Shown piece after piece: positions 43,302-43,625 of a stretch of DNA of 64,000 bases. A model generated the notes under the pieces. The model did no database searches. It had not been told where the DNA came from and worked only from the letters and a program-made list of their open reading frames with translations. This DNA is from an uncultured Clostridia bacterium (GTDB lineage: Bacteria > Bacillota > Clostridia > TANB77 > CAG-508). Each line of letters starts with the position of its first letter. Position 1 is the stretch's first letter. The DNA lies in contig CANEDP010000002.1 in the NCBI GenBank assembly GCA_947426305.1, forward strand, positions 65,960-129,959, given 5' to 3'. Both the position numbers and the translations under genes were made by a program.

Positions 43302-43331
43302 TTGACAAAATTTTCCTAAACATGATATAAT
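43302..43331 (+). promoter_or_regulatory. sigma-A promoter (extended -10) of the trp leader
   Basis: TTGACA, 18-nt spacer, TGaTATAAT. Confidence 0.6.
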
Positions 43332-43398
43332 AAATTTAAGAAAGATAGATTAACACTTTAAGATTATACGAATATATTATAAAAAGAGAGTAAAAATT

Positions 43399-43470
43399 AT
43401 GAAAAAAGTAATCAATTTGCAATTGAATAATTGGTGGAATGTATGGGTAAAAACTCATACAGATTTGTAG
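43399..43470 (+). CDS. candidate trp leader peptide MKKVINLQLNNWWNVWVKTHTDL (23 aa)
   Basis: Three TGG codons at 43432-43437 and 43444-43446 overlap segment 1 of an alternative-hairpin attenuator. The SD (GAGAG) is weak. Confidence 0.55.
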   Translation: MKKVINLQLNNWWNVWVKTHTDL

Positions 43471-43493
43471 TGCCAAAAATAAGTAAAATTTCA

Positions 43494-43546
43494 AGCACTT
43501 GTATGAGTAAAATTTTTGAATTTTATTCATACAGGTGCTTTTTTTA
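43494..43546 (+). terminator. attenuator terminator upstream of trpB
   Basis: 13-bp stem agcacttgtatga/tcatacaggtgct followed by T8. Confidence 0.75.
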
Positions 43547-43565
43547 TAGGTAAGGAGGTGAGAAT

Positions 43566-43586
43566 ATGAAAAGTTGGCGTTTTTAA
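43566..43586 (+). CDS. 6-codon upstream ORF MKSWRF
   Basis: It has the strongest SD in the region (TAAGGAGGTG, 8-nt spacing). It contains one Trp codon and ends 39 nt before the trpB start. Confidence 0.3.
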   Translation: MKSWRF

Positions 43587-43625
43587 AGGAAATCATAAAT
43601 GAAAAAGAGAAAGAAGGAATGTGTT

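Follow-up and report, generated by a model that had tools for sequence, protein, structure and literature searches.

A predicted leader-peptide attenuator, conserved and covarying, ahead of a solitary trpB gene in uncultured Clostridia

Within a 64,000-nucleotide stretch of DNA from an uncultured Clostridia bacterium (contig CANEDP010000002.1 of assembly GCA_947426305.1, positions 65,960 to 129,959; hereafter 'the window', meaning the whole of that stretch), a solitary trpB gene, encoding the beta subunit of tryptophan synthase, is preceded by a promoter, a short reading frame rich in tryptophan codons, and a set of alternative RNA hairpins. This arrangement is best read as a ribosome-mediated (leader-peptide) transcription attenuator, through which expression of trpB would depend upon charged tRNA-Trp, and we place the probability of that reading at roughly 85%. 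The cassette displays every property of a classical attenuator that can be tested from sequence; from it we infer the stalling of the ribosome, the kinetic timing of the process and the physiological signal to which it responds. The elements that carry the argument are the following, all of them on the + strand.

43302..43331 (+): sigma-70-type promoter, TTGACA, 18 nt, TG-TATAAT; 12/12 consensus match, with extended -10
43385..43390 (+): weak Shine-Dalgarno (SD) sequence AGAGAG of the leader open reading frame (ORF), read from the sequence
43399..43470 (+): leader peptide ORF of 23 codons, MKKVINLQLNNWWNVWVKTHTDL*, taken from the sequence and the ORF list and conserved in 42 distinct sequences
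43432..43437 (+): tandem Trp codons W12-W13, where the ribosome is proposed to stall, read from the sequence; a third Trp codon (43444-43446) lies inside segment 1
43440..43447 (+): segment 1, UGUAUGGG, the 5' arm of the 1:2 anti-antiterminator hairpin, present in the minimum-free-energy (MFE) fold
43453..43473 (+): segment 2, composed of ACUCAUACA at 43453-61 and AGUGC at 43469-73, with segments 1 and 3 as its alternative partners
43494..43545 (+): intrinsic terminator, a stem of ~21 bp (43494-43539) and then T7; terminator scan and folding, -24.4 kcal/mol
43626..44774 (+): trpB, tryptophan synthase beta subunit, 382 aa; TIGR00263, 576 bits against a cut-off of 392

A first-pass annotation, made from the letters of the DNA alone, had proposed the promoter at 43302-43331 and the 23-codon leader ORF with three TGG codons, and both were found where it had placed them. 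The promoter matches the consensus at all twelve positions, represents the top-scoring site within 42000-46000 in a promoter scan, and has a counterpart at the equivalent place in relatives. The TGG triplets of the leader fall at 43432-34, 43435-37 and 43444-46, corresponding to codons 12, 13 and 16; in the large ORFs of the window, 0.74% of codons specify tryptophan, and against that background the probability of encountering at least three in 23 codons is 6.5e-4. The SD sequence that serves the leader in relatives is AAGGAG, at the same spacing as its counterpart in the window.

Segment 1 (43440-47), the core of segment 2 (43454-61) and segment 3 (43500-07) were likewise recovered at the positions given in that annotation, and its central claim, that 1:2, 2:3 and 3:4 pairings exclude one another, was borne out by folding of the window and by pairing and covariation in the family. 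The 156-nt region from 43395 to 43550 folds into the 1:2 hairpin and a long terminator hairpin at -45.3 kcal/mol, compared with -23.0 +/- 3.2 kcal/mol for shuffled versions (z = -7.0, with 0/200 shuffles as good); the 1:2 hairpin alone, together with an outer extension, contributes a fold of -13.2 kcal/mol. The terminator was located independently by the terminator scan and by folding, with segment 3 as its 5' arm (43495-43508), segment 4 as its 3' arm, and the T7 run at 43539-43545; its presence had been correctly foreseen, but the stem is of ~21 bp rather than 13, and the run comprises 7 T residues rather than 8 and ends one base earlier. An outer helix in the window's fold, in which the Trp codons (UUGGUG) would pair with UGCCAA, is not evident by eye in the consensus sequences and is not claimed here.

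The alternative state was modelled by folding 43449-43512, as if segment 1 were masked and segment 4 had still to be transcribed. Under those conditions an antiterminator forms, in which ACUCAUACA (43453-61) pairs with UGUAUGAGU (43500-08) and AGUGC (43469-73) pairs with GCACU (43495-99), at -14.9 kcal/mol (z = -4.2). The 2:3 pairing that had been anticipated is therefore present, but is larger than the 8 bp originally described, consisting instead of 9 bp plus 5 bp.

In the mechanism that we propose, transcription would begin at the promoter at 43302-43331 and a ribosome would translate the 23-codon leader, with three possible outcomes: (i) that if tryptophan is plentiful, the ribosome would reach the UAG codon at 43468-70 and cover segment 2 (43453-73), whereupon the 3:4 terminator (43494-43539 and T7) would form and transcription would stop before trpB; (ii) that if charged tRNA-Trp is scarce, the ribosome would stall at W12 or W13 (43432-37) and mask segment 1 (43440-47), leaving segment 2 free to capture the 5' arm of the terminator as it emerges, so that no terminator would form and polymerase would read into trpB; and (iii) that if the leader is not translated, the 1:2 hairpin and then the terminator would form, a state known as superattenuation. 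A ribosome with its A site at a given codon covers approximately 12-15 nt downstream, according to established footprint sizes. In the window, segment 2 starts 21 nt past the first Trp codon (W12), for which reason a ribosome stalled at that point should leave segment 2 free, and the leader stop codon (UAG, 43468-70) falls inside segment 2. Both spacings agree with the trpL-type geometry that had been ascribed to the locus.

The recurrence of the cassette was examined with a TrpB-based scan of genomes, one genome per species, which returned 14 loci. The 8 closest of these (TrpB 72-94% identical) carry the same leader upstream of trpB; their hosts are uncultured Eubacteriales/Clostridiales metagenome-assembled genomes (MAGs), Ca. 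Scatovivens (which the NCBI taxonomy places in Bacillota, Clostridia), and rumen 'Ruminococcaceae' MAGs, an assemblage of uncultured Clostridia that upholds the earlier assignment of the element to a Firmicute host. In the next 5 loci (TrpB 52-60% identical), trpB stands directly after trpF in a normal operon, without the leader, and the leader is also absent from the remaining locus, in a Halomonas MAG (TrpB 53% identical). The closest relative of all, L001 (TrpB 94% identical), retains an intact leader with few substitutions and with its pairing preserved.

The sample was extended with a DNA pattern drawn from the core of the leader (AAY NNN TKG TGG NNN GTATGGG N4-20 CATACA), which was found in 59 metagenome stretches. 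Five of these were chance matches without an ORF or TrpB and 9 of the 59 end within ~320 nt of the leader stop codon, while in all of the remaining 45 (45/45) a TrpB start lies 146-292 nt past that codon. The window included, the collection comprises 42 distinct leader-to-trpB sequences. The proposal had been staked in advance on conservation of the leader ORF, Trp codons included, among relatives, and such conservation was found in 8 genomes and 45 metagenome contigs.

Across the 42 sequences, the consensus leader peptide reads M.NL.N.KLNNWWNVW[ED]KNHPYKFVVL*, and the SD sequence and ATG codon of the ORF are kept in all (42/42). The block of Trp codons begins at codon 12 in 41/42; the WW pair is maintained in all relatives except for the clade of L006-L008, in which it reads LW, and VW is conserved. 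Every insertion or deletion between the start and the stop codon preserves the frame, and, relative to the CAUACA core of segment 2, the stop codon falls anywhere from 8 nt before it to 27 nt after it. Position 14 of the peptide varies freely (N, I, K, T, Q, A or R).

Two further observations concern the leader and its promoter. Codons 8-11 (window 43420-43431), which encode K/Q-L-N-N and precede the Trp codons, are conserved beyond the needs of hungry-codon sensing; no stretch of RNA that would pair with these bases was identified, and the corresponding motif in the 8 genome loci, which form an unbiased set, is [QKE]-[LV]-N-[NHK]. A second, candidate promoter lies 20 nt downstream of the perfect one.

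43350..43378 (+): weaker promoter-like site, TTAACA-17-TATATT; 10/12 match, a candidate only

This site aligns with the single TTGACA promoter of L003 and L004, from which it follows that the window and L001 have either an unusually long 5' untranslated region before the leader or two start sites.

Conservation of structure was assessed in a MAFFT alignment of 38 distinct attenuator regions (A2), in which the terminators of L006-L008 stand two columns out of register and so add 'unpaired' cells to the counts, even as these rows fold perfectly when taken individually. In the terminator state (1:2 together with the lower 11 bp of 3:4), 96.4% of cells are in standard pairs and 5 pairs have changed on both sides; in the antiterminator state (segment 2 with segment 3, plus AGUGC:GCACU), 86.2% of cells are paired and 9 pairs have changed on both sides. 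For neither state was any of 500 shuffles as good (0/500 in each case), and slid controls gave 18-69% for the terminator and 13-53% for the antiterminator. Examples of compensation include the replacement of AGUGC:GCACU by GCGCG:CGCGU in L006-L008, and the conversion, on both partners, of the GC base of the terminator to AU in L003 and L004. The check for covariation in relatives that had been recommended with the original proposal thus yielded compensatory changes in both states.

Folding of the individual sequences and of the alignment leads to the same picture. A stable hairpin followed by a T-run is present in 42/42 sequences (that of L001 read by eye), and RNAalifold, with the alignment as its sole input, predicts the 1:2 hairpin and the terminator. 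The core of the segment 2:segment 3 pairing appears in the MFE structure of 41/42 sequences when each is folded over the interval that opens just past segment 1 and closes with the 5' arm of the terminator. Mean energies across the family are -10.1 kcal/mol for 1:2, -14.8 kcal/mol for the antiterminator and -18.3 kcal/mol for the terminator. Segment 3 is able to pair with two different partners through G-U wobbles, as is typical of such switches.

Several points weigh against the attenuator. Its support is comparative, with the mechanism read from sequence and from predicted folds. Because N-x-[W/L]-W-x-V-W served to select the metagenome set, conservation of those positions within it is partly circular; the unbiased sample consists of the 8 genome loci found through TrpB alone, which display the same leader features. 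The 1:2 helix, 96% paired across the 38 sequences, is nearly invariant, and is therefore conserved rather than covarying. The SD sequence of the window's leader (AGAGAG) is weak, and a ribosome halted at W16 would sit over ~4 nt at the start of segment 2, which leaves W12 and W13 as the sole codons that fit the model cleanly. Finally, transcription and translation in B. subtilis are largely uncoupled, according to the work of Johnson et al. (2020) as it is presented in PMC7858274, and this would make a timing-dependent mechanism less obvious in uncultured Clostridia.

Among other explanations for the same features, the one that survives best, improbable though we consider it, is that the leader is a nascent arrest peptide that senses free L-tryptophan within the ribosome, in the manner of TnaC, and that the position of the arrested ribosome sets the choice between terminator and antiterminator. 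The amino-acid sequence of the peptide is indeed unusually conserved around its Trp codons, most of the 42 sequences reading K-L-N-N-W-W-N-V-W, and a constant run of 11 codons, counted from the start codon, precedes the Trp block; simple sensing of hungry codons is not obviously in need of either. Pairing of the RNA nevertheless accounts for much of that conservation (GUAUGGG being segment 1, and the codons for HPY/HT being segment 2), residue 14 is free to vary, and arrest by free tryptophan would favor the antiterminator when tryptophan is abundant, which is the wrong sign for a biosynthetic gene. To our knowledge, the leader peptide also bears no similarity to the W-x3-D...P signature of TnaC.

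Control of the attenuator by an RNA-binding protein, a tRNA or a small ligand, with the ORF and its Trp codons being incidental, is a second alternative, to which we assign a very low probability. Firmicute trp genes are usually under the control of TRAP or a T-box (PMC3064811, PMC2494555), and the terminator and antiterminator pairings would by themselves be compatible with such a regulator. The first-pass annotation had held that these usual systems are not at work here, and the searches agree with it. At gathering threshold, no Rfam family, including Trp_leader (RF00513) and T-box (RF00230), matched anywhere in the window; at E<=10, the region 43250-43700 gave terminator-hairpin noise, with Phe_leader as the best leader family at 21 bits against a gathering threshold of 55. 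A T-box was rejected on the grounds that there is neither an RF00230 match nor a T-box core motif, and TRAP on the grounds that the longest chain of (G/U)AG repeats is 2, compared with an 11-repeat site (in shuffles, 1.8 on average and at most 5). The ORF, its SD sequence, its frame, the Trp codon at position 12 and the placement of the stop codon relative to segment 2 are moreover kept in the 42 sequences, and the conserved bases all lie in the three pairing segments or in the ORF, leaving no conserved unpaired region that resembles a ligand pocket.

Lastly, that the element is a decayed or non-regulatory relic in the genome of the window, with trpB expressed constitutively by readthrough or barely at all, is scarcely credible: a weak leader SD, the degenerate second tier described below (the clade of the window, L001 and L002 being without the long second ORF and the long-range helix that are kept in 39/42 sequences) and apparently split hisS and yigZ genes nearby, which hint at gene decay or assembly errors, would favor it, and yet the first tier is intact, the promoter is of perfect consensus, the terminator is among the most stable of the family (-24.4 kcal/mol), trpB is of full length, and L001 keeps an intact leader.

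The second tier is an additional ORF with Trp codons (uORF2) that lies between the terminator and trpB in 39/42 sequences. It possesses a near-perfect SD sequence (AGGAGGUGGUG) and an N-terminus of the form ME.DW.W or M[DEN][DE]GWW, with 2-3 Trp codons at positions 5-8, and extends for 37-72 codons; its start is located 19-30 nt past the T-run in most sequences, with insertions at that place in L003, L004, L018 and L067. The distance from its start to the ATG of trpB takes 11 different values (58, 61, 64 ... 85, 139 nt), all of which equal 1 modulo 3, and uORF2 consequently always crosses the SD sequence and ATG of trpB in the +1 frame, with its stop codon 53-80 nt inside trpB. The frame that ends at AUGA, the usual arrangement for coupling, is never used.

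The initiation region of uORF2 (GGUGGUGCAUAU) further pairs with nucleotides +27 to +37 of trpB (AUAUGUACCAC), which specify QYVP at codons 9-12. The mean energy of this long-range duplex is -16.2 kcal/mol, compared with -6.7 +/- 3.2 kcal/mol for other windows within trpB, and the site is the strongest one in 31/41 loci. In an anchored alignment (A3), 95.2% of cells pair and 4 pairs have changed on both sides, with 0-2/500 shuffles as good; compensation is illustrated by the change from CAU:AUG to CGU:ACG in L046 and L060. In L016, the helix takes the form GAUGAUAC:GUAUCAUC, together with an altered TrpB sequence. At nt +27..+40, the TrpB of L016 reads GGQYVSS where GGQYVPQ is otherwise invariant, which gives the impression that pairing in the RNA has limited, or even prompted, the change in this conserved part of the protein. 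No conserved hairpin that sequesters the SD sequence of trpB was found, and the unpaired probability of that sequence is 0.71, compared with 0.51 overall.

In the window, this tier persists as a remnant, identified by homology of position.

43552..43586 (+): uORF2 remnant, with SD AAGGAGG at 43552-58 and ATG AAA AGT TGG CGT TTT TAA at 43566-43586 (MKSWRF*)

The remnant has 6 codons, one of them for tryptophan, and its stop codon lies 39 nt before the ATG and 26 nt before the SD sequence of trpB. The long-range duplex (43555-43568 with 43652-43662) is gone, at -4.9 kcal/mol, and the window, L001 and L002 constitute one clade that lacks both the uORF2 layer and the long-range helix.

These features raise the tentative possibility, which we would not yet favor over its negation, of an undescribed two-tier sensor of tryptophan, widespread in gut and rumen Clostridia but decayed in the window, in which the attenuator would be followed by a translational toggle at uORF2. 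When Trp-tRNA is plentiful, a stream of ribosomes on uORF2 might keep the helix open and occlude the start of trpB; when it is scarce, the first ribosome might stall at codons 5-7 of uORF2 and block further loading, and the helix may then lock the uORF2 start, which would be devoid of ribosome traffic, while the start of trpB stays free. The proposal draws upon analogy with the leader of the B. subtilis anti-TRAP operon, in which the leader peptide rtpLP works alongside a T-box (Chen & Yanofsky 2003 Science 301:211; 2004 Mol Cell 13:703; both cited in PMC10327191). In that system, uncharged tRNA-Trp is sensed at transcription and then at translation by way of a short Trp-codon ORF, and complete translation of rtpLP blocks initiation downstream, which makes rtpLP the best analogue of uORF2 in the 39/42 sequences; the transcriptional sensor is a T-box there, whereas it is a leader peptide here. 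An ORF whose full translation would cover the downstream ribosome-binding site, as in rtpLP, is missing from the arrangement of the window and is present, in a modified form, in 39/42 relatives. The rtpLP ORF has 10 codons and ends close to the SD site of rtpA, while uORF2 has 37-72 codons, crosses the SD sequence and ATG of trpB, and pairs through its own initiation region with trpB.

The conserved start codon of trpB, as judged by comparison with relatives, is the ATG at 43626, which is served by the following site.

43613..43619 (+): trpB SD sequence GAAGGAA, within the conserved AAAGAAAGAAGGAA box, a conserved alignment block

An in-frame ATG at 43599, with an SD-like sequence of its own (AAAGGAAA), would add MKKRKKECV to TrpB. 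That codon is the start used in ORF lists and in public gene calls (a 391-aa form); it is not conserved (ATA in L001), and the interval that it would add (43599-43625) falls in a region that codes for uORF2 in relatives. It stands 12 nt after the stop codon of the uORF2 remnant, a distance at which reinitiation is conceivable.

No Trp residue is present in the TrpB of the window or of 26 complete relatives (27 sequences), and the enzyme could thus be synthesized under complete starvation for tryptophan. A tblastn search with TrpE, TrpG, TrpD, TrpC, TrpF and TrpA from ordinary trp operons (L009, L012 and L013) gave no match at E<=1e-3 in the 64-kb window and 67 related loci (512 kb in total), in keeping with the earlier statement that, locally, only trpB is present. 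No neighboring gene is conserved across the leader-trpB family either, and for that reason an operon partner, for instance a transporter of indole or of serine, was rejected. Given the lack of both local trp genes and a conserved neighbor, every trpB with this leader stands as a self-contained unit of one gene. Standing alone, TrpB probably makes use of exogenous indole, and its conversion of exogenous indole and serine to tryptophan, that is, indole salvage, is plausible. Gut genomes whose sole trp genes are those for tryptophan synthase have been reported (PMC9026213); unlike such tryptophan-synthase-only salvage, trpA too is not among the matches at the window and its 67 related loci.

Of known systems, the trpL leader of E. 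coli and Salmonella (RF00513) is similar to the cassette in its short leader ORF, its tandem Trp codons in or adjoining segment 1, its mutually exclusive 1:2, 2:3 and 3:4 pairings with a 3:4 terminator and U-run, its stop codon adjoining segment 2, and its logic, which is predicted to be shared here down to superattenuation. The two differ in that there is no similarity of sequence or to the covariance model, and in that the hosts are Clostridia rather than Proteobacteria; the peptide has 23-30 residues with Trp at 12, 13 and 16, compared with 14 residues and Trp at 10 and 11 in trpL, and a bipartite antiterminator (9 bp + 5 bp) precedes a lone trpB, while trpL controls trpEDCBA. Attenuators of the leader-peptide type outside of the Proteobacteria have also been predicted, by comparative genomics, for actinobacterial trp genes (Corynebacterium and Streptomyces; PMC1262725), with 2-3 UGG codons and triple-complementary segments, and with one in C. 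diphtheriae that precedes trpB2A, an operon in which trpB comes first. Those elements differ in possessing GC-rich gGCC-rGCy-GGCC triples and in serving multi-gene operons of Trp prototrophs, and no second Trp-codon ORF is described for them.

Within Firmicutes, trp genes under TRAP or a T-box share with the present family the phylum, the pathway and a 5' leader that resolves into either a terminator or an antiterminator; there, however, the sensor is a set of 9-11 (G/U)AG repeats or a T-box RNA, whereas a translating ribosome is the proposed sensor here. Transcription attenuation by leader peptides does operate in Firmicutes, as exemplified by the Leu-rich peptide of S. aureus ilv-leu (PMC5794164) and by B. 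subtilis bmrCD (PMC4191407) and vmlR (PMC9226507), but their signals are another amino acid or an antibiotic, their sequences show no relation to this family, and none of them acts on a trp gene. The trpRBA operon of Chlamydia trachomatis (PMC7755916, PMC6504234) is comparable in its truncated pathway, its rescue by indole and its partly Trp-codon-dependent translation; it is unlike the cassette in its use of the TrpR and YtgR repressors, in the WWW motif of YtgCR and in its retention of trpA. It also lacks a hairpin switch of this kind.

Within the library of papers that was searched, no specific description of this motif, or of a leader peptide of Clostridial trpB, came to light. The family is new, while ribosome-timed attenuation is itself a known mechanism, here in an unusual phylum. 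Leader-peptide attenuation of trp genes is a textbook case from Proteobacteria, and Firmicutes are taught as users of TRAP or T-box control, while in B. subtilis RNA polymerase is reported to run ahead of the ribosome; a conserved, covarying family of putative Trp attenuators in gut Clostridia would indicate that ribosome-timed trp control exists in Bacillota as well, and would provide a natural test case for the coupling of transcription and translation in that phylum. As no Rfam model covers the family, a model for this RNA could be added. The cassette also marks a lone, Trp-free trpB as a gene that would be tightly controlled by starvation in reduced gut genomes, which fits with cross-feeding on indole produced by neighbors. 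The putative second, translational sensor is the more novel part of the finding: if functional, uORF2 and the long-range helix would constitute a new way to combine transcriptional and translational sensing of one tRNA, and the same signal would be read twice, by two leader peptides.

In the window, the cassette is bordered upstream by mutS2 (on the minus strand) and by a gene for an Rpn-family nuclease, and downstream of trpB, after ~400 nt, by a gene for an FAD enzyme with its own promoter at 45135-45163. The Rpn-family gene (42367-43215), which encodes a PD-(D/E)XK nuclease/putative transposase, lies directly 5' of the cassette in both the window and L001. The flanks of L001-L073 place the leader-trpB unit in many different gene neighborhoods, which suggests frequent relocation or horizontal movement. 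Elsewhere in the window, hisS appears split into two overlapping ORFs (306 + 140 aa, 37169-38483), as does a yigZ/IMPACT gene (46348-47059), and both could be frameshifts, caused either by decay of the genes or by faults in the assembly; the YigZ call on a public contig that carries the same trpB (L074) is likewise short, at 139 aa.

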